Shown here in pieces: positions 5,820-60,456 of a stretch of DNA of 64,000 nucleotides. This DNA comes from Sedimentisphaerales bacterium (GTDB lineage Bacteria > Planctomycetota > Phycisphaerae > Sedimentisphaerales > SM23-30). Position 1 is the stretch's first letter. Each line of letters starts with the position of its first letter. Position numbers and translations under genes: made by a program. The notes beneath the pieces are model-generated. The model saw only the letters and a program-made list of their open reading frames with translations, was not told where the DNA came from and searched no databases. Where the stretch lies: assembly GCA_963666285.1 (NCBI GenBank), contig OY762711.1. The stretch is one strand, 5' to 3'.

Positions 5820-6175
5820 GGGGATGACAGGTATCGACCGGATTGTTTGAGGTGCGAGTGGCATGTCCAGGATGTCGGTTGGCCTGGTTAATCATCCGGC
5901 AACATAAACTTAAATGGCAACACACAGTTGCGCATGGCTGCCTAAATAAAGGCGCCCGTCTGTACCGAGACGCCCGCTATCGGATACAGGCGCCATTAGT
6001 GGGCTGGCTTGCATTGGTCGCCTGAGGCGATGCGAGTGAGATAATACTTTGGGCTGGCCGAAGAGATATCCTGTCTGTTGGAGATTTCCGAGGCGAGACC
6101 TTAATAAATAGACTAAACATGTAGAGGCTCGTACTGATCCATCACGGGACGGGGGTTCGATTCCCCCCATCTCCA
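5820..6175 (+). ncRNA. ssrA: tmRNA; tag reading frame 5916-5945 encodes (A)GNTQLRMAA
   Basis: 5' GGGGATGACAGGTATCGAC; 3' T-arm GGGGGTTCGATTCCCCC with CATCTCCA pairing to the 5' end; tag ends in ...AA-stop; CCA not encoded. Confidence 0.97.
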
Positions 6176-36894: not shown

Positions 36895-36901
36895 GTTTTA
36901 A

Positions 36902-36956
36902 TACGGGCGAAAGGAGTCGAACCTTCACATCTCTCGATACCAGAACCTAAATCTGG
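36902..36956 (-). tRNA. 3' fragment of tRNA-Leu(TAG); prophage att junction, not a complete tRNA
   Basis: Reverse complement CCAGATTTAGGTTCTGG-TATCGAGAGATGT-GAAGGTTCGACTCCTTT-CGCCCGTA gives anticodon arm, long variable arm and T arm; D arm and 5' acceptor strand absent. Confidence 0.88.
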
Positions 36957-37130: not shown

Positions 37131-38303
37131 ATGGCTACAGTATATCAACAAAACAATTCACCGTATTGGTCGTACCGATTTTCTTTCAATGGTAAAGAAT
37201 ATCGCAAAACTACAAAAACTACAAAACGCGCAGAAGCAGTAAGGATCATGAAAGACCTTATTGCCGAACTAAAAGGCTCCAGCAAACCAGACGAACTATT
37301 TCAGCGGCTGGTTGACCTACTTTTGGAATTAGACAAAAACGAGCGAAACAGGCTTAAAAACGACTATATAAGCAAACTAAGGTCACTTTCCGCTGCCCAA
37401 ATCACTCTTGAACAAGCTTGGAAAATGTACATAGAATTACCAAAAAAACACTCCCAATCAAAAAGAACTATTCAAGATTATGAATCTATGTGGAATAAGC
37501 TTAAAATATGGGCAAAAGACAACAGTATAAAATACCTACACGACATAGACGACCAGACCGCTATTAAATTCACGACAAAGCTACACAAGGACAAATTAAG
37601 CCCTCGCAGGTACAATCTATACCTAACTTTTTTTACGCACTTATACAAGCTTCTAGCCGTTCCTGTTGGCCTAACAGAAAACCCCTGGCAGTCAATAGAC
37701 CGAATGGAACTAAATACAATTAGCAAAAAACCACTTTCACAAGACCAACTGCAAAAACTATTTAATACCGCTAAAGGTGAATTTTTGATTCTGTTTTACT
37801 TGGGGTGCTATACCGCATTACGACTTGGCGATTGCTGCCAGTTAAAATGGTCACTTATAGATTTTAGCGATGATTGCCTAACTATAATGCCAAGTAAAAC
37901 AAAAAAGAAAGGCAAAGAAATTATTATCCCCCTCAACCAACACCTGCTTAAAATATTAACTGACTTAAAAGATAATAATAACAAATCTGACTACATATTA
38001 CCCAATCTTGCTGAAAAATATCAAACTGGCAGACAAAATGTAGTTAGGTCAATTCAAAAAATATTTAGAGATGCCGGAATTGAAACACAAGTTAAAAGAG
38101 AAGAAACTGGACGTTCTCAAGCAGTTTTTGGCTTCCATAGCTTCCGTCACAGCTTTGTAACCCTTTTGTCAAACGAAAACATCCCCAGACACGTTGTGAT
38201 GGATATGGTCGGCCACAGCACAACAGTAGTCCACCAGGTATATCAGCACGTTGAAACAAGCCAGAAAAAGCAAGCTATTAAGAAACTACCTAAAATCGTA
38301 TAA
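37131..38303 (+). CDS. Tyrosine recombinase / phage integrase
   Basis: YTALRLGD (R), K, FHSFRHSF (HxxR), VGHS (H), VYQH (Y); N-terminal arm-binding beta domain. Confidence 0.95.
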   Translation: MATVYQQNNSPYWSYRFSFNGKEYRKTTKTTKRAEAVRIMKDLIAELKGSSKPDELFQRLVDLLLELDKNERNRLKNDYISKLRSLSAAQITLEQAWKMYIELPKKHSQSKRTIQDYESMWNKLKIWAKDNSIKYLHDIDDQTAIKFTTKLHKDKLSPRRYNLYLTFFTHLYKLLAVPVGLTENPWQSIDRMELNTISKKPLSQDQLQKLFNTAKGEFLILFYLGCYTALRLGDCCQLKWSLIDFSDDCLTIMPSKTKKKGKEIIIPLNQHLLKILTDLKDNNNKSDYILPNLAEKYQTGRQNVVRSIQKIFRDAGIETQVKREETGRSQAVFGFHSFRHSFVTLLSNENIPRHVVMDMVGHSTTVVHQVYQHVETSQKKQAIKKLPKIV

Positions 38304-39076: not shown

Positions 39077-40195
39077 TTAGAATTTATTAAGCGGGCAAGC
39101 GTTATCCTGCTTGATCCAGTTATCCAAATTTGTTGTCCTGGTTAAATACAGGCACATATCACCACTCTCTACATAATACTTACACTCAGTACACATTTTC
39201 TTTTTACGGCAAAAGCTGCTATCTTCAGATTGCAATTCTGCTTTATTTTCCAATGGACAGGCGTTACCATTTTTCAGCCATTCAATCAAGTTCTTTTGCC
39301 TGGTTAACCATAAACAATATGGTGAACAGCCATTACATTTATTCCTGTAATACTCACAAGAATAGCATTTCTGCAAAGCTTTGATACTGTCTCTATACTC
39401 AGCCTGCAAATCCAATATATGACTTACAACTTCCTCGCCATAGACTTTTTTAATACGTTCAATTTCATCAATGATAAACCTGGTATCAGCATTGTATTCA
39501 TACAAAAATTCAACCATAGCAATAAAGCCATCAGCATAGTATGTATTATTTGATGAAACGATATTAAACTCATCACTATTAACAATTGATGGTTCAAATA
39601 ACTCACTTGTATAAACTTCCCTCTTGTCAGGATTCATCATCATAAAAAAGCTTTTATGTTTATCAAAACAAAAGAAGCAGTCAACCGTAATATTGTTTAC
39701 GGTTTTAGGTATCTTTGACATTATCTCGTCATACTTCTGACCAAACAATTTTTCATTCTTAACCTCAAGTAAAATATCCATATCTTTCAATGGTGCATCA
39801 ACAATCATTAAGGAGCCTGTTATAAGTATTCCGCTTAAACAATCATTAAACTCATCTAAAATTGGCTGAAAACTTTCTTTTATCAGTTCCCACATTTTCG
39901 GCACTGCAATTTCAAATGTACCAAAATATTTCTTGAGTATCTTTTCAATAAACAGCGAATTAAGAAACGGCATCGATTTACCAAACATCTTTTTAAATAC
40001 GACTTTTGGTTCATTACCGTCACATTCTTTATTGCATGGGCCGCCTTTAGCAGCACATAAGAACTTACAAAACACTTCATTTACCCAACAGGCTCTACCT
40101 GTCCGCTTAGAGCCATATAAACAAATATCACCTACCCTATGGAAACATTCTGGATATTCATGTACAAGATTCTTTTTTTCTAATACTACAACCAT
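39077..40195 (-). CDS. Cys-rich protein with a central Pol-beta-like nucleotidyltransferase motif
   Basis: ILITGSL......KDMDILL...VDCF; two C-terminal CxxC..Y....C..L....NL..W.K..NACPL repeats. Confidence 0.6.
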   Translation of the reverse strand: MVVVLEKKNLVHEYPECFHRVGDICLYGSKRTGRACWVNEVFCKFLCAAKGGPCNKECDGNEPKVVFKKMFGKSMPFLNSLFIEKILKKYFGTFEIAVPKMWELIKESFQPILDEFNDCLSGILITGSLMIVDAPLKDMDILLEVKNEKLFGQKYDEIMSKIPKTVNNITVDCFFCFDKHKSFFMMMNPDKREVYTSELFEPSIVNSDEFNIVSSNNTYYADGFIAMVEFLYEYNADTRFIIDEIERIKKVYGEEVVSHILDLQAEYRDSIKALQKCYSCEYYRNKCNGCSPYCLWLTRQKNLIEWLKNGNACPLENKAELQSEDSSFCRKKKMCTECKYYVESGDMCLYLTRTTNLDNWIKQDNACPLNKF

Positions 40196-41640
40196 TATAA
40201 ATACTCGATACTATCAATTACGGCATCCGCAAAATATGCGTTACAACAACTTGCACAATATGTTCCTCCACCAACAGACACCGTAACTTTTTTGTTGCCT
40301 GGACATAAAATTGTGTAAGTACCTGGGCCACCTATACCGCCACACAGCGAAGCTAAATCAGAATCACAACTACCACCAGAGTATTGACCAGTTCCACCTC
40401 CCCAACCAACAGTAACATCTTTGCCACTTAATAAAGCACATAAACAGCAATCGCCACCGACTTCTATCGGAAGGTCACTTGAAGATGATTCGCTGGAGCT
40501 GCCTTCTGAGCTGCTTGATGAATTGTCAGAACTTGAACTTGAGCTATCGCCGGAACTGGAGCTTGACTTTTTACTGGAACTGCCGCTCGAACTGGCCGAA
40601 CTGTCAGAGCTTGAACCGGAACTGCCGGACGAATCACCAGAGCTTGACGAAGATTCATCATCAGAACTGCCAGAACTATGGTCAGAACTGAAACTTGAAA
40701 AAGGCGGCGGCGTACTGAAATCATGGCTGCTTGAGCTTTTACGTGATTCTGATGTATGGTCAGAACTGCCACTGCTTTTATCTGAACTGCCAGAGGTAAA
40801 ATCAGAACTGCCCGAACTTTCGCTTGAACTGCCGGAAGTGTGGTCAGAACTACCGGAACTACTATATGAACTGCCAGAAGTATTATCCGAGCTTCCAGAA
40901 CTTTTATCAGAGCTGCCCGATGTAAAATCTGAACTGCCTGTGCTTTTGTCGGAACTGCCGGAAGTATGGTCGGAGCTGCCCGAACTACCGTCTGAACTGC
41001 CGGAACTGCCCTTTGAACTTGAACTATGCCATGAGCTACATGAGCTATGAGAACTCTTTTGTGATGTACCGGAACTGCCGGAACTATCATAAGAGCTAAA
41101 ACTTGACAATGACGAACTGCTGCTTATAGATTTTGATTCACTGGAAAAGCTATAAGACGAACTTGCCGTTGTATCGTATGAACTGCCACTTGTCGATTCT
41201 GAGCTATCACTTGAATGCTTCGAGCTGCTTTCAGTTTCAGAGCTGAAGTATGAACTTAACGAACTGGCATCACCTACATAGATACCGGTACAATACCATT
41301 CATCTTGTTTTTTATTCCTGATAGCAGTAAAGTAGTTGTTCTTTAATACATTTGGGTATTCAGCTATCTGACACTTTATCAGTATATCATAATATGGATT
41401 AGTTTCCGGCACTTCTTCATTAACACGATTAAATAATGTACCCCTGAAATAGCCCTCATCGTCTATATCTGAACTTGTAATAATACCAAAGACCATTTCA
41501 TCTTTAAGCACTTTACCATTAAGAACACTTGTTTTCCGACTGGACAGCGTGTTAACTGTGTCGATAACCTGGTTCAAACGCTTAACGGTTGAATGCGGGC
41601 CTTGTGTAAATTTTTCGATTTTAAATGAATTTCTGCTCAT
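40195..41640 (-). CDS. Serine-rich (mucin-like) tail-module protein with Cys/Gly-rich C-terminal domain
   Basis: About 260-aa Ser-dominated tract flanked by globular N- and C-terminal parts; second gene after the tape measure. Confidence 0.85.
   Translation of the reverse strand: MSRNSFKIEKFTQGPHSTVKRLNQVIDTVNTLSSRKTSVLNGKVLKDEMVFGIITSSDIDDEGYFRGTLFNRVNEEVPETNPYYDILIKCQIAEYPNVLKNNYFTAIRNKKQDEWYCTGIYVGDASSLSSYFSSETESSSKHSSDSSESTSGSSYDTTASSSYSFSSESKSISSSSSLSSFSSYDSSGSSGTSQKSSHSSCSSWHSSSSKGSSGSSDGSSGSSDHTSGSSDKSTGSSDFTSGSSDKSSGSSDNTSGSSYSSSGSSDHTSGSSSESSGSSDFTSGSSDKSSGSSDHTSESRKSSSSHDFSTPPPFSSFSSDHSSGSSDDESSSSSGDSSGSSGSSSDSSASSSGSSSKKSSSSSGDSSSSSSDNSSSSSEGSSSESSSSDLPIEVGGDCCLCALLSGKDVTVGWGGGTGQYSGGSCDSDLASLCGGIGGPGTYTILCPGNKKVTVSVGGGTYCASCCNAYFADAVIDSIEYL
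40752..41003 (-). repeat. 12 tandem 21-bp coding repeats (heptad SGSSDxx)
   Basis: GA(A/G)CT(G/A/T)CC recurs every 21 nt from 40763 to 40994. Confidence 0.92.
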
Positions 41641-42443: not shown

Positions 42444-43850
42444 TTACCTCAAAACAATATTCTGGATAGTATTTGCTATCGCTGTTGTATTCTGTGCCGT
42501 CTTTTCGTTTGCCTTTAAGTTCTGAGCTATCTTGTTATTACTCAAGGAAGAGCCAAGCGAACCAACCGAAACAGCACCGGCATCTATACTCATTATCGAG
42601 CCGCCTTTCATAGCAGCAGACACCGGCATATTACCGCCGCTAATTGAGCCTATCGGATCTCTGGTTTTTATCTTTAATTCTGTAGCCTTACGCCTTTTCT
42701 CAACCTCGGCAAATATCTTGTCAATAGTCTTTTTGCCATCGTCAAAGGAAAATATCTGGTCTAAACCTTCTTTGGCAAGGTTGTTATTCTGCCTGCTCAT
42801 CTCATTTGCAAACGCTTCAAGCTCACTTGCCTTATTGCCGGTAGATTCAGCAAAATCTGATATAGACTGCAAATCAAGCAATTTGCCGACCAGCTTTGAC
42901 ACTGCCGACACCACATCAAGCACAACACTTGCAAGGCCGCTAAACAAGGTAATAACACTACCTATAAAGGCCGATACGATTTTCAGTATCCCATGAATAA
43001 CACTAAAAGCCTTTGCGATAACATTGGCTATCAAAAAGGTTTTTTCCAGGCCCTTGTTAATACTGTCAGAACTGGCTATCCCGCTGGTACGCATATCCAT
43101 AAAAAGCTCACTTACATATTGAATATACGGCGCAAGGCCAACCGCTAATTTATCAATAAGTAAGGAAGTTGACTTTCTAAGGTTAGTAATAGCATCGTTA
43201 GCGGCTTCCACCTGTGCAGCGTCAACCCTGTTAATTGCACCGCCAAATTTATCTACCTCATTCATCATCTCACGAAGTGAGCCGGAACCGCCTTGCAGCA
43301 TTTGCAGCATTGCCACACCTTCAGTATCGAACAGCTTAAAGGCATATCTGACACGATCAGCCTGGCTCGGTACTTTAGCAAAGGCATCTGCCAGCGTTAA
43401 AAGTGCTTTTGCCGGGCCTTCCCGGTTGAGCTTCTTGGCATCTACCCCCAAAGCGATAAGGGCGTTTTTCGCCTCTCCTGTTCCCTGTGCAGCTTCACCG
43501 ACACGCCGAACCATTCTTTGTATAGAAGTATTCAGCGATTCGGTTTTAACCCCTGACAGCTCGGCGGCATGTTGCAGCTTGATTAAATCATCTGTCGCTA
43601 TTCCAAGCCGGTCTGACAGTTTGGCAAGATTATCAATTCTACCCATAGCCTTACCAACAGCCACAGAAACCGCACCAAAGCCCGCCGCCGCTGCTATGCC
43701 CATAGCCTTAAATATTCTGGAAACAGCCGTCACGCTTGCTTGTGCGGCTTTCTCGAACCTGTTCAGCTTCTTACGGCTTCGCTTGATATTTCGCTCAAAC
43801 AAAACAGTCTTTGCGGTAAGGTTTATTAGTAATGTTGCTACAGTTGCCAT
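42444..43850 (-). CDS. Tape measure protein (short, 468 aa)
   Basis: MATVATL.INL.A; IDNLAKLSDRLG..L.HAAELSGV; helical Ala-rich; follows the tail chaperones. Confidence 0.9.
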   Translation of the reverse strand: MATVATLLINLTAKTVLFERNIKRSRKKLNRFEKAAQASVTAVSRIFKAMGIAAAAGFGAVSVAVGKAMGRIDNLAKLSDRLGIATDDLIKLQHAAELSGVKTESLNTSIQRMVRRVGEAAQGTGEAKNALIALGVDAKKLNREGPAKALLTLADAFAKVPSQADRVRYAFKLFDTEGVAMLQMLQGGSGSLREMMNEVDKFGGAINRVDAAQVEAANDAITNLRKSTSLLIDKLAVGLAPYIQYVSELFMDMRTSGIASSDSINKGLEKTFLIANVIAKAFSVIHGILKIVSAFIGSVITLFSGLASVVLDVVSAVSKLVGKLLDLQSISDFAESTGNKASELEAFANEMSRQNNNLAKEGLDQIFSFDDGKKTIDKIFAEVEKRRKATELKIKTRDPIGSISGGNMPVSAAMKGGSIMSIDAGAVSVGSLGSSLSNNKIAQNLKANEKTAQNTTAIANTIQNIVLR

Positions 43851-47600: not shown

Positions 47601-48902
47601 TTACTTACGGCTGTTCAAAGCTATCATTGGCGATAGTTCCGGGCCATTTTCCGGTATGATTACTCCATTCAGCCAGCTTTGACCGTCGATTTCAAAGGTA
47701 AAGCGGAAAACAGATTCATCATAGTCAAACCGCAAATGAATACTCATCGCAGATTTCACACCGCCACGCAAACCAACAGCGTAGAAAGAAGGGTCAACAA
47801 GGATAATATCGCCTTTTGTACCAAGCTCTTTACAATACTCAGTTGTCAGCATTGGACGGCCTTTAAGCGTTTCTTTACCGCTGTTATAAATACCGGAAGC
47901 CAAACCAACTACAGTCTTAGAACCGTTATTATCAGTTGATATTACATTCAGGCCATCAAACTGCTCGCTGCAACCATGATTATGCAGCCAGATAGAACGG
48001 TTACGGCATTCGGCAGGCATACGCGCCCACATCTTGTTAATGTTAGGTGCTATAATAGTCTGCTTTGACTGTGAACTTTCAGAGCCAATACCAAGCAGAC
48101 AGCCGGAGTTCATAATACCATGCGGTTTACCTGTACCGTTACCGTTTAGAATGGCATCATTAACCTTTGCCTTTAATGCTGCGGTTGCGGCCCTGGCTAT
48201 AAACTGGTCAGCCGCTACAGCCTGACTAAGCAGCTCATTTGTAGCAGGTATCAACACCGCCAGCTTTTGCGGTTTAAGCTCCATTTCACGAAGCTTATAA
48301 TCACTGGTGTTAATTTTGTTGCCTTCCTTAACCCAAAACGCAACAACACCGCCATAACGAGAACCGCCGCTTCTTACATTACCATCAACAGCAGAGAATG
48401 TTAGGCTTGAGCCGGTTACTGTGTACTGGTCACACAAGGAAAGAAGACTTGCCTCATCAGCCATCAAACCTTCATGTATGGTATTGGAAAACTGAGGCGG
48501 AATTGCAAAGCCGCCTTCCGATCCGGTTTGAGTATTAGCACCGGAAGCAGCAGCAGAAACTAACAACCGTTCATCCGGCCTGACTCCACCCTGACCGGCG
48601 GCATGTACTACAGTTGCAAATTCGCCCAGGTTAGAAAAACCGCAGGTCGGGTCATCTTCCCGGCGGTCATGTACATTACTAATTGTAGTATCTGTATTTT
48701 TGGCCGGGATAGTACGCTTCTGGTCGATAAGCTTCTCTTCATTGGCTATCTGCTTCTGTACCTTTTCGGCACTTTCCATAAGCTCATTGAATTTTACCTG
48801 CTCATCTTCTGTAATTTCGTGGCCGTCCTCTGGATTAAGAATTGCGTCGGCCTTGTCGCAAATCTCCTGATGCTTCGCTCTAAGCTTAAATAACTTATCC
48901 AT
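47601..48902 (-). CDS. Major capsid protein, HK97 fold (start ATG 48902 after a GGAG RBS)
   Basis: N-terminal coiled-coil delta domain; GGFAIP.QF, W..EG, KLA.L...TNELL, ILNG.G.GKP.GI, L.GRP, S.HLRFDYD...FRF....DGQ. Confidence 0.93.
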   Translation of the reverse strand: MDKLFKLRAKHQEICDKADAILNPEDGHEITEDEQVKFNELMESAEKVQKQIANEEKLIDQKRTIPAKNTDTTISNVHDRREDDPTCGFSNLGEFATVVHAAGQGGVRPDERLLVSAAASGANTQTGSEGGFAIPPQFSNTIHEGLMADEASLLSLCDQYTVTGSSLTFSAVDGNVRSGGSRYGGVVAFWVKEGNKINTSDYKLREMELKPQKLAVLIPATNELLSQAVAADQFIARAATAALKAKVNDAILNGNGTGKPHGIMNSGCLLGIGSESSQSKQTIIAPNINKMWARMPAECRNRSIWLHNHGCSEQFDGLNVISTDNNGSKTVVGLASGIYNSGKETLKGRPMLTTEYCKELGTKGDIILVDPSFYAVGLRGGVKSAMSIHLRFDYDESVFRFTFEIDGQSWLNGVIIPENGPELSPMIALNSRK

Positions 48903-48948
48903 TCTCTTTACTCCTTCAAATGAAATGGTGTTTATATATAGCGTATAT

Positions 48949-49788
48949 TCAGCTTGCTGTCCGCGCAAGTCTTAATCTGTTACGCATTGCCTGTTTATTG
49001 ACAGGACTTTCCCTCATTATCTGTTCAAATGTAGCTATACGGTCGATCATACCAGCCTGTAAAGCGTCACTTGCAATTAACATTCTGCCCTTGCCGTATG
49101 TGCCTTTAACATTATCTGCCGTTGTCTGGCGGTTACTGGCAACGGTATTTACAAAGCGGTCATAATACTGATTAACCTGGTATTGTAAGTATTCCTTAGC
49201 GTCCTTACTTAACGGCTCATAAGGGTTTGCCTCAACTTTGTATTCACCGGCCTTAACAATAGTGAGTTTAACACCCATCTTATCAAGTGCCTCGCTGACA
49301 TCCTGATGAACAACCAGAGTGCCAATACTGCCGACCTGACTGGTAGGCATTGCCACAATTTCACTTGCCGCCGAGCCGATACCATAAGCAGCAGAAGCCA
49401 TCCAGCCGTTAACCAGTGCGACAATCGGCTTTTGTGACCGCATAGAAGCAATCTTACCGCTCATCTCATCCATTCCCATAGCGTCACCGCCGGGGCTGTC
49501 AATATCAAGTATGATACGGTTAACCTTTTTATTGCTCATAGCCTGTTCTAACAGGTTATCCAAGTTCTGGTAACTCTGACCGAAATAGCGGGAATATGCA
49601 CTGTCCCGGTTAAATAAAGGCCCTTGTATCGGGATTACACCGGCAGAGCCGACCACATTTAACATAGCCGCCTTTTCATACCAGCTTGCATTCTGCGGCT
49701 TTTCCATATCGTGACATTCAGTAATAATGTCTTTAATGTCAGCGGCGTAATCCTCGTGTATATGCCAGATTTTATTCTTGTTCTTCAT
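48949..49788 (-). CDS. S49 family head maturation protease
   Basis: LDIDSPGG, MASAAYGIGSAA, VGSIG, AGEYK. Confidence 0.9.
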   Translation of the reverse strand: MKNKNKIWHIHEDYAADIKDIITECHDMEKPQNASWYEKAAMLNVVGSAGVIPIQGPLFNRDSAYSRYFGQSYQNLDNLLEQAMSNKKVNRIILDIDSPGGDAMGMDEMSGKIASMRSQKPIVALVNGWMASAAYGIGSAASEIVAMPTSQVGSIGTLVVHQDVSEALDKMGVKLTIVKAGEYKVEANPYEPLSKDAKEYLQYQVNQYYDRFVNTVASNRQTTADNVKGTYGKGRMLIASDALQAGMIDRIATFEQIMRESPVNKQAMRNRLRLARTAS

Positions 49789-51004
49789 CTGTTGGCTCTT
49801 TCACCTGTTCAATACCAGAACTTTCAATTGTGCCATCTTCGCTAATTCTGGTCATATTGGTTTGCATGTAATAACTGTCACCGCCGGGGATTGGGTTTCG
49901 GTTTTCTAATATCCTTATTTCATTGCGAGACAATGTACCCCGGTAAAATTCCTTTGTGTATGCGTCCTGTCTGGTTTTGATATCACCTCTTAATAAGCCT
50001 TCCATAAGCATTTCACAGAAGTAATTATCACCATCTAATACAGTTTTCTTTATACGGCCTTCAAAGCTTTTGACCTGCGGTAAAATAGTATCTGTCGCAA
50101 ATTCCAGACTCTGATGTTCGATATTGGTAAAGGTTGATCTAAGTAAATGTGCTATCTTATGCGGCGGCATACGATACCAGCGGCATACTTCCTCTATCTG
50201 GTGCTGGCGGGTCTGTAAAAACTGTGACTCTTCCGGGGTATTTGACATTGAAGAATATTTAATACCTTCCTCGGTAACTAATACGCCTTCTTCTGCCATA
50301 CGCTTTACTGACTTGACAAGCCTGTTTTGTGCGCCTTCTGATAAAGTATTAGGATGTTCTAATACAGCATTCGGCCTTGCTCCCTTTTGAAAGAACTTAG
50401 CACCAAACAACTCGGTAGCCCTTGCCAGCCCGATAGTATCGCTGCCCGCTTCAATTGGTGATATGCCATCATAACCATTCAAAGTCAAGCCCGGCAGATA
50501 CAGCATTTCATCTTGTAGATATATGCGGTTCTCGCCGTTCCTTGTGACTTTATACCGTAATGTATCATCGGCCATTAACTGGTTCTGTACCTGGGTCGGA
50601 TGTATCGGTAAACCAAACTCTATTATATTGCCAAAGTAATCACGCTTAATCGGACTGTATGCACGCCCGTAAAGGTTCTTATGTGTTAATAGCGTCATAC
50701 GCCATTCAAAACTTGTCTGTATCTTATTAGGCGATTCTTTAAGCAGATAATACAAATAATGGTTCTCGGCCCGCTGCTTGCCGCCGTCCGACTGTTTCTG
50801 ATATGTCAAAAACGGTAACAATGCTATTGTTTCACATATAACTTTGTTACAGGCCCATATCGCACTTACCCTTAATGCGTTCTCAGGTGTAACCGGAACG
50901 CCAGCCGCCGACAAAGCAGGTACGGCAGAATACCAGAAGTCATCATAAGGACTTTTTTTAGGCTTTTCGCTTGCCTTAAATTTATTAAACAGACTTCTCA
51001 GCAT
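49772..51004 (-). CDS. HK97-family portal protein
   Basis: AL..SA.WAC..VI.ETIA.LP, GISPI, FF..GARP..VL, QFLQTR, R.PPHKI, NIEHQ, NEIR.LEN.NPI.GGD. Confidence 0.95.
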   Translation of the reverse strand: MLRSLFNKFKASEKPKKSPYDDFWYSAVPALSAAGVPVTPENALRVSAIWACNKVICETIALLPFLTYQKQSDGGKQRAENHYLYYLLKESPNKIQTSFEWRMTLLTHKNLYGRAYSPIKRDYFGNIIEFGLPIHPTQVQNQLMADDTLRYKVTRNGENRIYLQDEMLYLPGLTLNGYDGISPIEAGSDTIGLARATELFGAKFFQKGARPNAVLEHPNTLSEGAQNRLVKSVKRMAEEGVLVTEEGIKYSSMSNTPEESQFLQTRQHQIEEVCRWYRMPPHKIAHLLRSTFTNIEHQSLEFATDTILPQVKSFEGRIKKTVLDGDNYFCEMLMEGLLRGDIKTRQDAYTKEFYRGTLSRNEIRILENRNPIPGGDSYYMQTNMTRISEDGTIESSGIEQVKEPTDEEQE

Positions 51005-51748: not shown

Positions 51749-54700
51749 TCAATTGCCAAGACCATATATTACCACTCCATGCAGTTTATGCTTTTTACTT
51801 GGCTCAAGCCTGGCTATTTCCCTGTAACCTGTGCCGACAAGGTATTTACTAATAAAATCCTGTTCCTGCTTTCTGAATATATCGTGACAGGCAATGTATT
51901 TACTCTTTGAATTAACGGCAGTAATAAATGATTCTTCCCTTGCTTCCGGCGGGTCTGGCCCATCGATAATAACAAAGTCATGTGCAGACATACTAAAAGC
52001 CTTACCATCATATAATTCAATACAATCCCGGTCTAATAGCAGCCTGATTTTATCATGCCAATACTGACTTGTTTCATAGCTGGTAATATCAAAGCCAAGT
52101 GAAGCAAAGGAAAGAGTAGAAGCACCACAGCCAAATTCTACTATTTTGCTGATACTATGTTCCTTCAGGAAATCAACAACAAAATTAAATTCCTTTGTCC
52201 GCATTGCTCCTTTATCATCCAAATGCACATAAAAGGCATTTTTACCATGCAGCCGCTTTTCTTCTGCCTTGTACAGAAACGCCGTAAATTCGCTGTTATA
52301 GTCTTTATCAAAATGCGGCTGCCAAATACCATTATCAACCAAATTCGCCCGCTGTTCGACATTCTCGTAAGCATAATCCGCTAACTGCTTGTTCTTACCC
52401 GTCATTGACAAATGGAAACCATCACCGCCGCCACGCCAGACATAGCCCGGCAAAAATGGATAACTGATACGCTGTTCATGCCATGAGCTTAAACGAACCC
52501 GGCCATCGTAACAGTTATCAGGAAGGCCCTTAACCGGCTTATTAAACTTAGCCGCCAGCATATCGCGGCTCACAGTCTCAAATACCGCACAAGTCCAGCC
52601 GGAACCGTTCTTGATAAAGGCATAGTCATTATTACACATTACAACCTTGCGTTCATGTGAAGACTGCAAAGGCCGTTTATTGGTTTTCTTATGATAACCT
52701 TGCTTATTCCAGTAATTGACCTGCATTAAGGTTAATATGTGATTTTCCAGCATAATATCGTCATCATCACAAATCATCCAATACGGCGTATTAACCAGGC
52801 TGATAGCGCGTTCGTGCTTTTTAGCAAGAGTATCAAAGTTATGACCGGGCATTTCCACAACCTCTATATTGCTGTACCGCTGCTGAAATACTATCGGGTC
52901 TTTATGGGTATTAAGAAGTAATAATCTTGCCTTTGGATAGCTCTGGCGTAAAAACGATTCTATCATTTCTTCGGTACGGTGTTTATGTGCGCCATACGTG
53001 CAGCAAACTACAGTAACTTCAGGATATTCACCTAAAGTATAATCAAGTGTGACAGGCTGCGGGCTGGCCTCGGCTCTGGCCCTTGTAATCCGATCCAGTT
53101 TGTTTTCATGGGCGTTTTTGCCGGACTTGCTTTCATGTATTACATGGTTGCGACACCATGTATAAGTAACCGGCAAATCAAGTTCCAGCGGCGCTAAAGC
53201 TTCCATAATGCGTTTATCGAAGCCCTGCAAATCTGAACCGATATCAACTTTACGCATATCGTCGGTACGATAGACACCATTCCACCACATAAGCTTTTTA
53301 AGCTGCTTTACCGGCCCGGTCATATTTCCAGGCTTGATATTACTGCAATCCATTTCCTCAAAGTTCAGATTGATAACATTCTTGAACTTATTGGCCTTTA
53401 AAGCTTGTGCCATCTGTTGAACATGGTTAATACTTACCCGGTCATCATCGTCAAGAATAGATACATGCGAAGTCGTAACATGCTTTAAGGCTTGCTTAAA
53501 CTCGGTTATATGGTCAGACGGTGCAATATTGACAACCTCAATACAAGGATGATAGCCGTTAATCCATAGCGGTTTAGGATTGCTGTTAACAATAAGAAGC
53601 TTTTTATTCTCATAGTTATTATTCAAAAAGGAATTAACCGCTATTTCTAGCGAAGTTCTATCCCTTTGGAATGTATTCATAATGTAGGTAATAGCGGGAT
53701 TGTTAAAGTTATCTATCATATCATTATAATCTTTCTGCCAACCTGGTTTAATTGACTCTAATATGTTGTCCCTGACCTTTTCTATCGAGTTTTTATAATA
53801 GCCCGGCTTACTGTGCTCATTCCTGATATGAAAACCCACGCCGAGCCGGTGCAATACGGTCGGTTTTTCATTGTGGTATTTAGTCCAGTTCCATTCACTG
53901 TTTTTAATGAAATGTAAGTCGCTGCCGGTGTCTTTCTGTTTACTGGCTAGAAAGTCATTGAATACCTCATCAATAAAGTCATTATCAACCTTTTCATACA
54001 GACAACACCACCAGCCACGCTCCCGGCATTTAGGCCAGTTATTTTTAACCTGCTCCCAGGCAATATCATTTATCACATAGCCGGGACTTTCCAGACCTTC
54101 ACTTTTAGCCCTGTAATATAGCTTGACAAGGCTGCTTATATGGTCAGAACTAAATACATCATCTGAATCCATAATGCACCATAGCGGCGTTTTAACCTGC
54201 TTTAAGGCATAGGCTATCTGCTGCGGGAAACGGTTAAACGGCTCATGGTTGATTACTGTGATATTATCATAATCCTTGTCAAGTTTGTATGTGGGATTGG
54301 TTGCCACGATAACAAGCTGCTTGTTTTCGTAATCCTGCCGTAAAAAGCTTTCTATAGCCTCTGCGTCTAAATGTGGGTAAAGACCGTTTGTATTCATTAT
54401 CGCCGTTACAGCTGGCTTGTCGCCGCTTACAACAGAAACAGGCGGCAACGAGACAATTAAAGGCCGTTTATGCTCATGCTTTACCTTTTTAGGCAATAGA
54501 TACCCAAGCTCGGTTTCAAAAAAGTCAAATCCCCGGCACTGGTTCTCACCTGTACCATCAAACCACTTGAATAAATCCTGCCTGCCCTTTGATACTCCCG
54601 GTGTCTTATAGCCTGTACTGCCGTTTTTCCACATGTGAGCGAATGGAGCCTCACCGCACAATATAACCTTACCGCCTATACTCTCGCCGTATGGATCGGA

Positions 54701-55324
54701 CAGCCAGACCTTAGAAGCCCATTCAACCCCGAAATTACCCCACCGGGCAGGCTGTTTTTTACAACAGCCATTAAAAGCATCATAAAACTGCTTTTCCAGA
54801 AACCAGCCCATGCCGTTACCGGTAATGGTATATTCATTACGGCCCTGGGTTTTAATGCCGCTCCACTGGTCCTTATAGCGAACATCGATATACTTATGCC
54901 CTTGCCGACGGCCTTTACACTTATAATCAGGTAATATCAGGTTATCCAAATCAGGAATAACCATAGTACGCTTATCGATACATAGCTGCTTATATATAGT
55001 ATCCCAACCGAAAACATCAGTTTTACAGTGTGAATCTATATGAAAAACATACTTGCCTTTAGCATAAGAAACAGCCTTGTCAGTTGCGGGCCTTCTGCCG
55101 ACATTATCTTTCAGGGTGATAATAGTAGTCTTTGCACCTGCTATATCAATCGGCTCATCATTTGGCCCATCAAGTAAAACAATAAACTCTATCGGGCCTT
55201 CTGACATACGCTGCATATTATTTAAGGTCTTACCAAGCAACTTTTCATTGCGTGCAACCATAATAACACTGACAAGCTCATCAAGTACCTCATCCTTATT
55301 CTTTTTTATAATTTCCGGTAACAT
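51749..55324 (-). CDS. Multidomain glycosyltransferase: ppGalNAc-T-like GT-A domain, three GT2 domains, C-terminal SAM methyltransferase
   Basis: aa17-235 SVIMVARNE, DSH, WGNFGVE, AHMWK; GT2 units starting at about aa304, 543 and 768 (SFL.Q.Y...L.I, DSDD/DDDD/DDDD, H); aa1063 EFGCGAST, DFVIIDG, HD. Confidence 0.85.
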   Translation of the reverse strand: MLPEIIKKNKDEVLDELVSVIMVARNEKLLGKTLNNMQRMSEGPIEFIVLLDGPNDEPIDIAGAKTTIITLKDNVGRRPATDKAVSYAKGKYVFHIDSHCKTDVFGWDTIYKQLCIDKRTMVIPDLDNLILPDYKCKGRRQGHKYIDVRYKDQWSGIKTQGRNEYTITGNGMGWFLEKQFYDAFNGCCKKQPARWGNFGVEWASKVWLSDPYGESIGGKVILCGEAPFAHMWKNGSTGYKTPGVSKGRQDLFKWFDGTGENQCRGFDFFETELGYLLPKKVKHEHKRPLIVSLPPVSVVSGDKPAVTAIMNTNGLYPHLDAEAIESFLRQDYENKQLVIVATNPTYKLDKDYDNITVINHEPFNRFPQQIAYALKQVKTPLWCIMDSDDVFSSDHISSLVKLYYRAKSEGLESPGYVINDIAWEQVKNNWPKCRERGWWCCLYEKVDNDFIDEVFNDFLASKQKDTGSDLHFIKNSEWNWTKYHNEKPTVLHRLGVGFHIRNEHSKPGYYKNSIEKVRDNILESIKPGWQKDYNDMIDNFNNPAITYIMNTFQRDRTSLEIAVNSFLNNNYENKKLLIVNSNPKPLWINGYHPCIEVVNIAPSDHITEFKQALKHVTTSHVSILDDDDRVSINHVQQMAQALKANKFKNVINLNFEEMDCSNIKPGNMTGPVKQLKKLMWWNGVYRTDDMRKVDIGSDLQGFDKRIMEALAPLELDLPVTYTWCRNHVIHESKSGKNAHENKLDRITRARAEASPQPVTLDYTLGEYPEVTVVCCTYGAHKHRTEEMIESFLRQSYPKARLLLLNTHKDPIVFQQRYSNIEVVEMPGHNFDTLAKKHERAISLVNTPYWMICDDDDIMLENHILTLMQVNYWNKQGYHKKTNKRPLQSSHERKVVMCNNDYAFIKNGSGWTCAVFETVSRDMLAAKFNKPVKGLPDNCYDGRVRLSSWHEQRISYPFLPGYVWRGGGDGFHLSMTGKNKQLADYAYENVEQRANLVDNGIWQPHFDKDYNSEFTAFLYKAEEKRLHGKNAFYVHLDDKGAMRTKEFNFVVDFLKEHSISKIVEFGCGASTLSFASLGFDITSYETSQYWHDKIRLLLDRDCIELYDGKAFSMSAHDFVIIDGPDPPEAREESFITAVNSKSKYIACHDIFRKQEQDFISKYLVGTGYREIARLEPSKKHKLHGVVIYGLGN

Positions 55325-56934
55325 TAGAATGTAAAAGGGTCTCTTTCCTCATAAACAGATTCTTGGGTTTCGTGGTTCTCGGTAATTAACCGGCCTAAAG
55401 CCATTAGCCCGGCAACAATAATATCGATACGCTTAAAGTTCTTAGGCTTGACAGGCTTGATATTCTCGTTTTCATCCTGCTTGACCGTTACATTAGAAAC
55501 GCACCAGTTTAATACAGGATGGTCATCATGGGCGATCTTACCAGCCAGTAATAAAGCCTCTAACGCTTTACATGGCGGGGATATATTCTTTATACCCTGA
55601 CCATAAGGCGTACATTCGATACCTTTATCCTGTAAGTTTAATATCATCTGAGTAGCGTTATATGGGTCATAAGCGATTTCAGAAAAGTTATATACCTGGT
55701 GCATTTTCAATATATGATTCTGGATTACGCTATAATCAACAACATTACCATCTGTAAGAGTGATTTTACCTTGCCGCGCCCAGGTCAGATAAGGAACGCC
55801 GTCTTGATGTTCCCGTCTGGTTGCGTTCTCTTTAGGGATAAAAGGCCAGCTATGCCAGTGCAGATTACCAAGCGAATCGAAACCTAAAGCAGTAAAGGCC
55901 GTTAAATCCGTTGTAGTTGATAAGTCAAGCCCGCCAACCCAAATAATACCGTTATCACTTCTAAGTTCGATATTGCAATCCTGCCACGCCTTAACACTTA
56001 ACCAGCGGCATTCCTGCTCTGTCCACTGGTTCAAGTGTAAACGCCTGAAGGTGTTTTCCTTTGCCGGGATTGCCTTTGCTTTCTGACACTGCTTTTCCAG
56101 ATAGTCACGATTAACCGATATACCTAAATTCGGGTTGCAATATTCCCATACCGCCGGGTCATCCCATCTATCATAATCAGCCTGCTTGATTTCATAGATA
56201 ACAGGCAAAAAGGAACTGTCCTTTATTGCACCGTCACGCACCTTACAGGCATAATCATATTTTTCATAACAGATTGTTTCCTTGTCATATCCGGCAGTAG
56301 TAATATGAATTACTAAAGGCTGCCGACGTGAAGCGGTGGAAGTTTCCAGCGTATCAATTAAATCCCTTGTTTTATGTACATGCAGTTCATCATTGATAAT
56401 CAAATGGGCGTTCTGACCATGCTTGGTATTGGCATCAGCAGAAAGAGCATTATAAATACAGTCACCGCCGTAAAACTCGGCACTCTTATAGGTCTTGTAT
56501 ATCTTGGCCCGCTTGTCAAGCTCTGGATTACGCTGGATCATACCCGCTACATGACGGAAGATTAAAGCGGCCTGGTTCTTTTCCCCGGCACTGGAATAAA
56601 TCTGACCGCCCGGCTCATCCTCATTATAGGCCACATGGTTAATGACACCTGCCATTAGCGGGGTTTTACCGTTCTTACGTGGTATCATTAAAAACGCTTC
56701 GGTATAGCGTCTTGTACCATCAGGACACAGCCAGCCGAACAGATTAGCGATAATAGCCTTTTGCCAATCTTCCAGGACAAAGGCAGGATAGCCCGATACA
56801 CCCTCAATTAAACACAACTCTTCAGCAAAGAAATCGATAGCAAGTTGCGCAATATCAGCGTCAAAGATACAGTCCTCGGCTGTTGCAACCGAATCATAAT
56901 CCGGTATAAGTTGTAAATAATCGGGGTAATCCAT
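55324..56934 (-). CDS. Terminase large subunit
   Basis: LEDWQ, IPRKNGKT (Walker A), INDELH (Walker B), ITTAG, NPNLG, GLDLS.TTDLTA, YDPYNA, RID. Confidence 0.96.
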   Translation of the reverse strand: MDYPDYLQLIPDYDSVATAEDCIFDADIAQLAIDFFAEELCLIEGVSGYPAFVLEDWQKAIIANLFGWLCPDGTRRYTEAFLMIPRKNGKTPLMAGVINHVAYNEDEPGGQIYSSAGEKNQAALIFRHVAGMIQRNPELDKRAKIYKTYKSAEFYGGDCIYNALSADANTKHGQNAHLIINDELHVHKTRDLIDTLETSTASRRQPLVIHITTAGYDKETICYEKYDYACKVRDGAIKDSSFLPVIYEIKQADYDRWDDPAVWEYCNPNLGISVNRDYLEKQCQKAKAIPAKENTFRRLHLNQWTEQECRWLSVKAWQDCNIELRSDNGIIWVGGLDLSTTTDLTAFTALGFDSLGNLHWHSWPFIPKENATRREHQDGVPYLTWARQGKITLTDGNVVDYSVIQNHILKMHQVYNFSEIAYDPYNATQMILNLQDKGIECTPYGQGIKNISPPCKALEALLLAGKIAHDDHPVLNWCVSNVTVKQDENENIKPVKPKNFKRIDIIVAGLMALGRLITENHETQESVYEERDPFTF

Positions 56935-57431: not shown

Positions 57432-57728
57432 CTACCCCCGGTTTTCTATCCGCTTCTTTGTACTGTTGTGACACTGTAAACATAAGGCTTGCCAGTTGTC
57501 ACTATCCCAAAATAACGCCATATCGCCTTTGTGCGGCTTTATATGATCAACTACATTGGCCGCCGTTATCTTACCTTTTTCTTTACAGAATACACATAAG
57601 GGGTTTTGCTTTAAGAATAAAAGCCTTGCTTTCCTCCACCTTCTATCATATCCCCGCTTTGCCGCTGACGGTCTTTTATCTTTCGGGCGTTTCCTCTTCC
57701 TGCTGTGTGATACTGGTGCTACTGGCAT
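57432..57728 (-). CDS. HNH endonuclease (HK97 gp74-like terminase cofactor)
   Basis: RGYD.RW.KAR..FL..NPLC..C......A.VVDHI.PHKGD..LFWD..NWQ.LC..CHN. Confidence 0.93.
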   Translation of the reverse strand: MPVAPVSHSRKRKRPKDKRPSAAKRGYDRRWRKARLLFLKQNPLCVFCKEKGKITAANVVDHIKPHKGDMALFWDSDNWQALCLQCHNSTKKRIENRG

Positions 57729-58246
57729 TAGTCATTCAGATAGCTATAGAATAATACTAAGCTTCCGGCTCCTGCTGTTCTTTCCGCATATACATAATGT
57801 AAGCCAACTAAGTCCAGGTGAATACAGCCAAGCCTGTTATGGGCCGAGTCTGCACCCTCTATAATCAGCGGTGTATCCGGTAATGACCAGTTATCATTAG
57901 CAATAGTACAGGTATCTATTAACATGCCTGTTACCTTATCACCTGTAACCGGGTCTGCTGTAATAGCAGAAGTACCGACCGTTAATGTTACTGTTGCTAT
58001 ATATTCCGCTAAGGTAGAGCCGTTACGAAATCCCCACAGCTTAACAGTAAAGGTACTATTAGCCGATACACCTGTAGCATAGCCGCAAAGCTTTATTACC
58101 GATTCCAGGTTACTACCGAAAGAACATGTACCGTCCGGCCTCTTATCTAATAGCAAAGCGGTATCTGCTATCGTCTCACTGTCAATAGCACTGGTTGACC
58201 TTAACTTCTGCCATATTGATTTAACATCGCCATTCAGACTATTCAT
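57728..58246 (-). CDS. Hypothetical beta-rich phage protein (possible virion accessory)
   Basis: Tightly coupled ORF in the late operon. Confidence 0.6.
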   Translation of the reverse strand: MNSLNGDVKSIWQKLRSTSAIDSETIADTALLLDKRPDGTCSFGSNLESVIKLCGYATGVSANSTFTVKLWGFRNGSTLAEYIATVTLTVGTSAITADPVTGDKVTGMLIDTCTIANDNWSLPDTPLIIEGADSAHNRLGCIHLDLVGLHYVYAERTAGAGSLVLFYSYLND

Positions 58247-59132
58247 AATAGCGTTTTTCCTTTCTCATCATCCTTGAATTGAATCTGTTACGAAATGATT
58301 TAACTTTGTTCTTCTGGAATGCTCTTAACTTTGGCATACCGGAAAGTACATCCATATACCAGGTATTCACAAAGTCAAAGTTATTAAAGTTGTCCTTATT
58401 GGTAAACTCTTCTGTTGTTAAGCCTGTAGCCACCTGGCTACTACCTAAAACAGCTAAATCAGAATTGTAATAATTATCAGAAGTATAGCCATCTGCTCCA
58501 GGTTCGTAATATTCCATAAACGGATCAAACTGAGAATCACTATAAATTTGTGCATTTAAGATACAACGCCTTACGGTAAATTGGCTAGAACCTATTAAGC
58601 CAGGCTTACCGTTCTCTGTTGCCATTGTACTATAACAGTCCTGAACAATAGACAACTCAGCAAAGCCAACTAAACACGCAACTTCGTATCCGAAAGGTGT
58701 TTCACTGTACCCATCAACAAAACAGCGGGCAATTGTTATTTCACCATAATCATCAGCAGCTATAAAACCTATCAAACATCCTGCATCATTACTTAAATCA
58801 GTGCAGTAAGCATCAGTAAAACCTATTTCCTTTACTAAAGCTCTTCCTGTAAGCTCTTTTATAAAACCGTTTGCCGAACCATTAACCTTAAAGTTATGAA
58901 TAACATAGCCATTACCAAAAAAGTCATGCTGATAGCTTGAAAACCCTGTCCAGCTTGATTCTGCATAGCTTCGACTGTAAGGATCATTAAAAAGAATATC
59001 AGATTGCAGTTCTGCACCGTATGCCTGAAGGCCAGTTAACGGATTACTCAGGCTATCATAGTAATCTCTATAAGCCTGGAGAGTAGCAAAGTTAGCTATC
59101 TGTATGTAACCATCTCTTGTGTTAAATGCCAT
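58239..59132 (-). CDS. GLUG-motif-like beta-helical protein (possible adhesin/virion accessory)
   Basis: F.GNGYVIHN, G.LIG/LVG repeats, CYS, NFDF.NTW.M....PKL. Confidence 0.55.
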   Translation of the reverse strand: MAFNTRDGYIQIANFATLQAYRDYYDSLSNPLTGLQAYGAELQSDILFNDPYSRSYAESSWTGFSSYQHDFFGNGYVIHNFKVNGSANGFIKELTGRALVKEIGFTDAYCTDLSNDAGCLIGFIAADDYGEITIARCFVDGYSETPFGYEVACLVGFAELSIVQDCYSTMATENGKPGLIGSSQFTVRRCILNAQIYSDSQFDPFMEYYEPGADGYTSDNYYNSDLAVLGSSQVATGLTTEEFTNKDNFNNFDFVNTWYMDVLSGMPKLRAFQKNKVKSFRNRFNSRMMRKEKRYYE

Positions 59133-59433
59133 ACTGTACTATCCCTTCAGAAAATACCTGCATTAGAAATTCATCTCTAGCTAGTAGCCGCTCTTTAATC
59201 TCACCAGGCCGATAAACTCTCAAATCAACAGAAAAGGCAGGTTGTAAATCATATAACATTTGTTTCGCTAATACTATACTTGGCATATATGTTTCTATTT
59301 CTACCAGTAAGTCAATATCTGACTCATCTGTTGCCTTACCTGTAGCATAAGAACCAAACAATAATATTTTAACAGGATGGTATTTTGCTACTATGCTATC
59401 GATCAAGCTTTGAATATCACTTTCAGCTATCAT
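59122..59433 (-). CDS. Minimal nucleotidyltransferase (MNT) domain protein
   Basis: ILLFGSYATG.A...SDIDLLV...VDL. Confidence 0.88.
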   Translation of the reverse strand: MIAESDIQSLIDSIVAKYHPVKILLFGSYATGKATDESDIDLLVEIETYMPSIVLAKQMLYDLQPAFSVDLRVYRPGEIKERLLARDEFLMQVFSEGIVQYGI

Positions 59434-59671
59434 CTTCTATACTCGCTATTATCCCTTGCAGATAGGAAACTTTACTGTCAATATATGTCTGTCTGTTATT
59501 ATTGATTGCTTCAATCTGTAAAGCACAATTAGCCTTTACCGTAGGCCAGACACTAATATTATCAACGTGTAACTGTAACTTACTTACTATCTCATTCAGC
59601 ATGTCATCGGCTGTAACCGGGTCTTGCCATTGCGTAAGTTCAGCTTGTAATTTCTCTTTTTTATCGCTCAT
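59423..59671 (-). CDS. Hypothetical phage protein
   Basis: AGGAG RBS; overlaps the next gene. Confidence 0.6.
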   Translation of the reverse strand: MSDKKEKLQAELTQWQDPVTADDMLNEIVSKLQLHVDNISVWPTVKANCALQIEAINNNRQTYIDSKVSYLQGIIASIEDDS

Positions 59672-59746
59672 AAAAATACTCCTGTATGCGAATTTGATAT
59701 ATAATAATCATAACACACATACAGAAGTTTAATACGGAAAAGGCTT

Positions 59747-60106
59747 TCATTTGTGGTAGGATTTGTAGTATATATCCGCTATTGTAGTTAGTGAAACATA
59801 GCCGGTTTTACCCACCCTTATTAAACCGATCACCCGCTGACGCTGGATTGCGTAAGCTTCCCTTAAATACTGTAGCTGCTCGGCTGTTATTGATATGCCA
59901 TTGTCTTTATCAACTGTAGCGTCAAGTGTCTTTACCACTCTTGCCAGTAAAGTATTAAAATGTTTTTTCGGCATTCCATCCCACAAACTCATCATTTCAA
60001 CATATAGCTCATCTTTTGATATTGGCGATGTGCCTATCATCTCTGCCATAAATGCCGTCTGTGAAATAGGCAACTGATATACAGGGTGTAATTTTCTTTC
60101 TATCAT
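59747..60106 (-). CDS. Hypothetical phage protein
   Basis: ATGA-type coupling with the upstream gene. Confidence 0.6.
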   Translation of the reverse strand: MIERKLHPVYQLPISQTAFMAEMIGTSPISKDELYVEMMSLWDGMPKKHFNTLLARVVKTLDATVDKDNGISITAEQLQYLREAYAIQRQRVIGLIRVGKTGYVSLTTIADIYYKSYHK

Positions 60107-60447
60107 ATTAACTCCGTTTCTACATTTAGATAACTAATAGGCTTATTAAATTCTTTGGCAAGCCTGATTTCAGCCTGCACGCCTTTTGATTGTTGCCAGC
60201 CGGGAATTTGTAACACTTTCAATTCATCACATTTGCTTATCATCAAAGTGTCGTAACTTTCCCAAAAATCCCAATCACCAGGTAAACCATAGCGGGAAAT
60301 CGGGTGAGTGTGTGCTATAGGGCTATACACAAACAATCCCTGTTTCATTAACTCCGCTGCATATTTACAAACCAGTTCAAAACGCTTTTCTTTAATAGCT
60401 TCCGATTCATGCGAATACGGAGAGGCCAAATATATTAGTCTTTTCAT
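60103..60447 (-). CDS. DUF1937 family (nucleoside deoxyribosyltransferase-like fold)
   Basis: IYLASPYSH, YSPIAHTHP, GW..SKGV.AEI..A. Confidence 0.85.
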   Translation of the reverse strand: MKRLIYLASPYSHESEAIKEKRFELVCKYAAELMKQGLFVYSPIAHTHPISRYGLPGDWDFWESYDTLMISKCDELKVLQIPGWQQSKGVQAEIRLAKEFNKPISYLNVETELI

Positions 60448-60456
60448 CTTTACTCC

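Follow-up and report, generated by a model that had tools for sequence, protein, structure and literature searches.

The 64,000-nucleotide stretch of DNA analysed here (contig OY762711.1 of a Sedimentisphaerales bacterium, hereafter the window) contains an open reading frame (ORF) of 1191 amino acids (aa) that sits between the terminase and portal genes of a 40.5-kb prophage and is under purifying selection. It joins a domain resembling the GT27 polypeptide N-acetylgalactosaminyltransferases (GalNAc-Ts or GALNTs) to three GT2-type glycosyltransferase (GT) domains and a methyltransferase-like domain. We consider it probable that the GT27-like unit, domain 1, puts the first sugar on serines of the phage's own Ser-rich tail-region protein. 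The basis for this is a GT27 fold with its metal triad, a gene that is placed within the head module and selected against amino-acid change, the presence of a Ser-rich gene in all three prophages of the genome and a family-wide co-occurrence of such enzymes with Ser/Thr-rich genes. Judged from its sequence and structure model, domain 1 likely acts like a GT27/GT60 peptide O-glycosyltransferase and is not itself a GALNT.

51749..55324, minus: whole ORF, 1191 aa; GT27-like domain, three GT2 domains and methyltransferase
54515..55282, minus: domain 1, aa 15-270, GT27/GALNT-like GT-A catalytic domain (profile against the PDB, AlphaFold model, Foldseek, VIA-align)
52250..54424, minus: domains 2-4, aa 301-1025, all three of GT2 type and bearing DxDD motifs (PF00535 on each)
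51752..52249, minus: domain 5, aa 1026-1191, class I S-adenosylmethionine-dependent methyltransferase fold (model predicted local distance difference test, pLDDT, 84.8)

Four GT-A domains are thus present in the ORF. Domains 2-4 are mutually related (phmmer E values 1e-10 to 1e-20) and have no significant phmmer match to domain 1. A Pfam scan gave no match for domain 5, and the Foldseek matches listed for its model are methyltransferases throughout. By inspection, no signal peptide or membrane anchor is seen in the 1191 aa; the GT core begins at residue 17, after a charged N-terminus, and the type II membrane anchor of GT27 enzymes is absent. Pfam also detects no C-terminal ricin-type lectin domain (CBM13) in the whole protein, domain 1 being followed by the GT2 domains instead.

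Relationship of domain 1 to GT27 enzymes

A preliminary description of domain 1 listed eight motifs in the order found in GT27 enzymes. All eight are present, in that order, in one minus-strand frame (starts at window positions 55273, 55189, 55099, 55009, 54961, 54814, 54742 and 54640), and the DxH and distal His to which it drew attention are D97-S98-H99 and H230. The collinearity that it claimed with GT27 is correct for motif order, but its alignment masked two losses: the final Arg of GLIRAR has no counterpart in GRRPATD, and the first Glu of WGGENLE is Phe in WGNFGVE. The spaced pattern DxHC...WGxxxxExxxxxW...H occurs in domain 1, in none of the three other GT domains of the same protein and in 0 of 100,000 shuffles, from which a chance order of the motifs was rejected; the pattern was derived from the query sequence itself, and the shuffling speaks to order and spacing only.

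Single-sequence phmmer matches to GALNTs (E 0.19-0.83) are weaker than to an ordinary GT2 (1.7e-4), and the significance of the relationship consequently rests on a family profile and a structure model. Relatives were reached by alignments alone, starting from a four-sequence seed taken from the prophages of this genome and from two genomes of the same class. Viral contigs searched with the seed yielded 163 and 110 confirmed stretches, of which 80 were kept in either case, and proteins yielded 2,079 relatives among 6,414 candidates. A phmmer search of 1.84 billion representatives gave 432 matches, part of which are repeat artefacts, and seven relatives at 45-70% identity. From 228 domains, 126 remained below 65% identity, and 124 of these aligned with the query make up the 125 rows of the profile. 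Protein searches by word index that used the single domain scored none of their 369 and 366 candidates, and a scan of viral contigs with that domain likewise found no relatives. In 50,697 deposited phage records, tblastn gave three weak half-length matches for the query and none for a central member of the family, and hence no isolated phage with the enzyme.

When the 125-member profile was compared with the PDB, the 15 best sequences were all GalNAc-Ts (E 5e-21 to 3e-12), with matches extending from positions 3/4 to 253/257 of 278, whereas other GT-A matches cover positions ~1-103 only. The Foldseek matches listed to rank 50 for the AlphaFold model of domain 1 (pLDDT 88.8) are GalNAc-Ts throughout, with template modelling (TM) scores of 0.66-0.78. 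Among 48,161 chains aligned with VIA-align, mouse GalNAc-T1 reached Z 25.8 (root mean square deviation 2.9, 263 residues aligned), Toxoplasma T3 Z 23.5 and the best GT2 Z 19.8. As the preliminary description had anticipated, the best profile and structure matches are therefore GT27 GALNTs, over the full catalytic domain, and not ordinary GT2 enzymes. Pfam labels all 125 members PF00535 (GT2), a label that GALNTs carry too. Assignment to the ordinary, glycan-extending GT2 enzymes was rejected on three grounds: domain 1 has DxH and not DxD(D), GT2 sequence matches cover only its N-terminal half, and no GT2 exceeds Z 19.8.

D97, H99 and H230 are invariant in the 125 rows. A FastTree tree of family members only, computed with the motif columns removed and midpoint-rooted without an outgroup, splits cleanly, by one change, into 86 rows with Glu or Asp at the position of GalNAc-T2 E334 and 39 rows without (Shimodaira-Hasegawa support 99). 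The query belongs to the 39-row, non-E334 subfamily.

Candidate acceptor and Ser/Thr-rich genes

Independent support for a Ser/Thr peptide acceptor comes from the genomic context. The candidate in this prophage lies two genes after the tape measure gene.

40195..41640, minus: 481-aa tail-region protein, candidate acceptor; 167 Ser, 29 Thr
40477..41268, minus: Ser-rich tract of 264 aa (aa 125-388), with 151 Ser and 13 Thr; each of the six Ser codons occurs

The 481-aa protein has no family in Pfam or PHROGs, and its N-terminal part matches unnamed viral clusters only in the ESM Atlas. Homologues with tracts are encoded in both sister prophages and in a prophage of another genome (G110), and of the six long frames richest in Ser/Thr in the host genome, four sit in its three prophages. 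Directly after the Ser-rich gene is a Cys-rich 372-aa gene (window 39077-40195, minus) for which no family was found. In the closest relatives (P0126, P0127, P0130, P0131 and P0132), similar Cys-rich modules, recognized by eye, are fused before domain 1, which ties the enzyme to the tail-tip region.

Viral loci extending up to 10 kb on each side were scored for an ORF in which Ser and Thr together make up 25 or more of 50 residues. Such a tract is present in 124 of 151 family loci, most of which were drawn by patterns favouring relatives of one member other than the query, and is encoded by the adjacent gene in 72 of the 151. The proportion is 90 of 100 for family loci of at least 12 kb and 18 of 26 for loci with the query subfamily only. 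Control loci, which are on average shorter, have a tract in 3/80 (tape measure), 2/80 (terminase) and 1/73 (Che8-gp109) cases, 6/233 in total, and none of the 233 contains a family member. On GTDB contigs, a tract accompanies 21 of 44 family loci (a few of which repeat loci counted earlier) versus 0 of 29 loci with ordinary GT2 enzymes that were taken from that scan. No family member was found in the five records behind the control loci with Ser tracts, which are 14-44% complete and were searched without a positive control. An alignment of the DUF616 gene that follows the GT ORF matched no viral loci and so provided no control set.

PHROGs annotation of 89 genes from nine loci places the GT clusters amid terminase, capsid, adaptor, tape-measure, sugar-nucleotide and methyltransferase genes. 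A scan of 81 Ser-rich proteins found LamG domains in 12, and F5/8, Dit, PKD and head-completion domains in single ones.

The main acceptor might alternatively be a capsid or tail-tube protein, as in mycobacteriophages, with the Ser tract incidental. The GT ORF does lie in the head module, and in the cluster O phage Corndog a methyltransferase and three GTs are encoded between portal and protease (PMC11600133). Che8 gp108-110 and Corndog gp36-38 are, however, outside the family: the best match is partial, 10.6 bits over 80 positions, no family match occurs in any of the 73 gp109 loci, and membership of the Che8/Corndog enzyme family was rejected. Tracts are scarce at Che8-gp109 loci, the present enzyme family tracks with Ser-rich genes, and we regard acceptance mainly by capsid or tube proteins as improbable.

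Active site, donor sugar and reaction order

Residues were placed in register by sequence alignment to GalNAc-T2 chain 6e7i (offset +43).

55028..55036, minus: DxH metal motif D97-S98-H99, equivalent to GalNAc-T2 D224-S225-H226
54722..54742, minus: WGNFGVE, aa 195-201; equivalents of W331, G332 and E337 kept, Phe at E334
54608..54637, minus: H230 and loop HMWKNGSTGY, with the equivalents of H359, F361, R362 and Y367

The metal ligands D224, H226 and H359 correspond to D97, H99 and H230, and the peptide pocket and loop residues W282, W331, G332, F361, R362 and Y367 to W154, W195, G196, W232, K233 and Y239. F361 and W282 are required for peptide recognition by GalNAc-T2 (PMC4432651), and its selection of GalNAc involves R208, E334, G308/G309 and G332 (PMC13071866). 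The sugar-selecting R208, G309 and E334 are lost, being replaced by T81, M172 and F198, and G308 and G332 are the only GalNAc-selecting positions kept (G171, G196). Because of these three replacements, the donor is probably not the uridine diphosphate (UDP) sugar UDP-GalNAc, to which the sequence leaves a minor though real chance. Direct membership of GT27 as a GalNAc-transferase was rejected: GalNAc-selecting residues are replaced, and lectin domain and membrane anchor are missing. The preliminary description had read domain 1 as a Ser/Thr peptide O-glycosyltransferase that initiates the glycan. Profile, structure and genomic context support that reading, and the GalNAc label is withdrawn. 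We infer both peptide transfer and, within the pathway, initiation rather than extension by domain 1.

A later step in the same pathway is the alternative to initiation: initiation would fall to a different unit, be it domains 2-4, the DUF616 protein or an enzyme of the host, and domain 1 would add a later sugar or need a pre-glycosylated peptide. Both subfamilies occur together in 79 of 151 loci and the clean split of the tree suggests two different reactions, with the query on the side that lacks E334. In the G110 prophage, an MptE-like gene directly follows the Ser-rich gene; its family, PF01973, presumably covers the Maf flagellin transferases. The non-E334 subfamily, however, retains the peptide-side residues far better than does the E334 subfamily. 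In its 39 rows W331 is kept in 36, G332 in 38, F361 as Phe or Trp in 37, R362 in 35, Y367 in 34 and W282 as Trp or Phe in 34, whereas in the 86 rows with E334, Trp is outside the four commonest residues at the W331 position and the F361 position is His in 63. In 18 loci, moreover, the tract is accompanied by no GT27-like gene other than those of the query subfamily, and domains 2-4 have ordinary GT2 DxDD motifs. A later step is accordingly unlikely in our estimation, although it is the strongest of the competing explanations.

Several observations weigh against initiation by domain 1 on the Ser-rich protein. The system is known here from genes and predicted structure alone, the identity of domain 1 to GALNTs is 14-19%, R208 is missing from the entire family and E334 from the query subfamily. 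The candidate acceptor is encoded ~13 kb from domain 1, unlike in most relatives, where the two genes adjoin, and its presumed location in the virion is taken from gene position. L253, the nearest relative by terminase, has a head-closure gene rich in Ser and Gly, with a repeat type that scores collagen-like, and no GT between terminase and portal. Co-occurrence was counted in one direction only, from enzyme-anchored loci, and these loci are not independent; when related loci are clustered, a tract is present in 103/127 at 90%, 54/70 at 70% and 11/20 at 60% identity. With a threshold of 20 of 50, the contrast is blurred, the controls rising to 14/80, 15/80 and 33/73 versus 132/151 for the family. 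A tract is not seen in 8 of the 26 loci with the query subfamily only and in 23 of the 44 GTDB loci, many of which are incomplete.

Proposed pathway

In the pathway that we propose, the 1191-aa protein would be made late in the lytic cycle and act in the host cytoplasm. Domain 1 would bind Mn2+ and a UDP-sugar and, with retaining chemistry as in GT27 and GT60, move the sugar onto serines of the tract, Ser/Thr being the likely acceptor residues. Initiation is assigned to domain 1 because it is the sole GT27-like unit in the prophage. Domains 2-4, which are predicted to extend the glycan, would lengthen it processively together with the DUF616 protein, and domain 5, from its model a predicted methyltransferase, would cap it by methylation. 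The modified protein would then be built into the tail tip, where the presumed outcome is a stiff, hydrated and protease-resistant sugar brush on the particle.

Prophage organization, selection and sister copies

55324..56934, minus: terminase large subunit (phrog_9, E 3e-162), overlapping the GT start codon
50985..51671, minus: TOD1/MUCI70 (DUF616) GT-like gene (PF04765, E 0.009), kept in 3/3 prophages
49772..51004, minus: portal (phrog_12, E 1e-104)
48949..49788, minus: head maturation protease (phrog_53)
47601..48968, minus: major capsid protein (phrog_10)
42444..43850, minus: tape measure protein, 468 aa (phrog_9483)
37131..38303, plus: tyrosine integrase, presumed from catalytic motifs in the translation
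36898..36929, no strand: attachment (att) core, 32-bp direct repeat copying the 3′ end of a tRNA-Leu

Downstream of the GT ORF the order is DUF616 gene, portal, protease, capsid, head-tail adaptor and tape measure. The second att copy is the 3′ end of the tRNA-Leu 40.5 kb further on (G000:C1:1005391), and the bounds of the prophage are set by these 32-bp direct repeats and the adjoining integrase-like gene. No clear attP junction was found in contigs of three sequencing runs; a loose contig end at 36898 matches the sequence that precedes the other att copy, which fits an attR contig and an excised circle equally. Among the sequencing runs listed as containing the locus, none is of RNA.

The near-complete 6.35-Mb genome contains three copies of domain 1 (100, 93 and 50% identity), at the same place in three prophages, and no further full-length family member. 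The other two prophages lie in tandem at ~2,112,000-2,183,000 of G000:C1 and have the same terminase-GT-DUF616-portal block, the DUF616 copy of the third matching PF04765 at E 7e-12. In the third prophage, transposase ORFs break the terminase and one later gene. It also encodes a 627-aa head-closure protein with SGTSG-type repeats that scored collagen-like.

A role outside the virion is also conceivable, the gene being a moron that modifies either phage DNA or, in lysogenic conversion, glycans or proteins of the host surface, with a GT27 likeness of fold only. Phage GTs do glucosylate DNA and convert serotypes (PMC12619734), Pfam assigns the whole family to GT2, and clusters on Patescibacteria-labelled contigs adjoin very large Ser-rich proteins and may be cellular. 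Against such a role, the GT ORF is co-oriented with and overlaps the terminase in a late operon in all three prophages, there is a Z gap of 6 above the best GT2, the association with Ser-rich genes is strong and a membrane anchor is lacking; we give it somewhat less credence even than a capsid or tube acceptor. A decayed, inactive remnant is very improbable. The query is on a long branch, has Met at the G309 position and has a sister copy in a transposase-broken prophage, but the frame is open in three prophages and in the seven relatives at 45-70% identity. Compared with the second prophage copy, the ratio of nonsynonymous to synonymous substitutions is 0.11 for the whole ORF, 0.116 for domain 1 and within 0.08-0.13 for every domain.

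Comparison with known glycosylation systems

The GT27 GALNTs (GALNT1/2/4/7/10/12, Drosophila PGANT9 and Toxoplasma GalNAc-T3) share with domain 1 the whole catalytic fold, DxH and the distal His, the WG...E..K/R.W helix, an H-x-aromatic-basic loop with Tyr and the W282 position, and the candidate acceptors are likewise dense in Ser/Thr. In contrast to the GALNTs, the phage enzyme lacks lectin domain and membrane anchor, is presumably cytoplasmic, continues into three GT2 domains and a methyltransferase-like domain, and has replacements at R208, G309 and E334. According to Taujale et al. (PMC7185993), only GT27 and GT60 have DxH, and both O-glycosylate Ser/Thr of polypeptides. The GT60 polypeptide alpha-N-acetylglucosaminyltransferases of Dictyostelium and Trypanosoma cruzi resemble domain 1 in DxH, in O-glycosylating peptide Ser/Thr and in having no ricin lectin (PMC7185993, PMC8724618). 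Phage proteins named 'Glycosyltransferase, GlcNAc' (N-acetylglucosamine) in BFVD have TM scores of 0.55-0.63, below those of the GALNTs. The Pfam GlcNAc family, PF11397, which we take to be that of GT60, gave no match for the query at E 10 nor for the 125 members at E 0.01. No GT60-named chain is among the PDB matches listed by Foldseek and VIA-align, which does not exclude a likeness to GT60. Several of the uncultured-phage 'Glycosyltransferase, GlcNAc' (GT60-like) proteins are structural neighbours, and phages may carry both DxH families.

Virions of mycobacteriophages are glycosylated by Che8 gp108-110, by Corndog gp35-38 and in Myrna (PMC11256854, PMC11600133, PMC12619734, PMC12363180). 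These systems also combine phage GTs with a methyltransferase, inside the head module in Corndog, and have glycosylated virion proteins, as is proposed here. They differ in their unrelated enzymes, in that the acceptors are capsid and tail-tube C-termini versus dedicated Ser tracts, and in having separate genes versus one polypeptide. The streptococcal and staphylococcal serine-rich repeat proteins (Fap1, PsrP, GspB) are similarly glycosylated stepwise at Ser-X in the cytoplasm by clustered GTs, and SESASES-type repeats are found beside family members. Serine-rich repeat proteins are, however, initiated by the GT-B GtfA/B complex and go to the cell wall by accessory Sec export; here the enzyme is a GT-A, GT27-like one and the protein belongs to a phage.

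Mucin-type initiation by GT27 enzymes is regarded as a eukaryotic Golgi process. As a tentative proposal, to which we attach slightly less than even weight, tailed phages may hold a large uncatalogued sister group of GT27/GT60, in two subfamilies, that builds a mucin-like glycocalyx on dedicated Ser/Thr-rich virion proteins; the pathway (initiate, extend three times, methyl-cap) would here be fused in a 1191-aa assembly-line polypeptide, and the group may preserve a prokaryotic or viral stock of mucin-type O-glycosylation. If so, sugar-brushed phage particles would be widespread, given 2,079 relatives in one search, the family would serve as an outgroup in tracing how GT27/GT60 arose, and bacterial glycoengineering would gain Ser/Thr O-glycosyltransferases that are small, soluble and adapted to the cytoplasm. 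Within the accessible text of the literature covered, which leaves out most subscription journals, we found no report of a phage or prokaryotic GT27-like enzyme or of a phage Ser-rich glycoprotein (including PMC13738210, PMC13345888 and PMC12014285). Particular to the present case are the divergent non-E334 subfamily, the fusion of the whole proposed pathway in a single protein and the occurrence of three prophage copies that are att-bounded or embedded in the chromosome. This copy is convenient for testing, in an att-bounded prophage of a near-complete genome, with two sister prophages as natural variants and with enzyme and candidate acceptor as two co-expressible genes.

Additional loci and neighbouring genes

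An unfused form of the pathway cluster is present in the G110 prophage (L017:7294-11953), in which the Ser-rich tail gene is followed by the MptE-like gene, a small GT, a stand-alone 261-aa homologue of domain 1 and another small ORF. Six GTDB loci from Patescibacteria-labelled and other small genomes (L413, L417, L427, L432, L435 and L437) have two to four family members next to Ser-rich proteins that reach 2372 aa, and may be prophages or cellular surface systems. At L121, L153, L115, L133 and similar loci, a recurring 270-390-aa gene with an N-terminal domain of ~110 aa and a Ser-X tail at the C-terminus directly follows the major capsid gene and precedes a GT; its product is a candidate for decorating the capsid with a mucin-like tail. 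L031:12992-13879 encodes a protein with a poly-Thr run (50 of 50), and four genes away is a family member to which a methyltransferase of the domain 5 type is fused.

Window positions 57728-61170 (minus), which lie upstream of the packaging genes, encode a 297-aa protein without a family, a minimal nucleotidyltransferase (PF01909), a DUF1937 protein and an N6/N4 DNA methylase. Two small exported-type proteins, whose tails appear PEP-CTERM-like by their motifs, and a 1130-aa repeat protein are encoded towards the distal prophage end (L019:6537-11355), probably as cargo; proteins of this sort would point to a planctomycete host. The host tmRNA gene is located at window positions 5820-6175 (plus).

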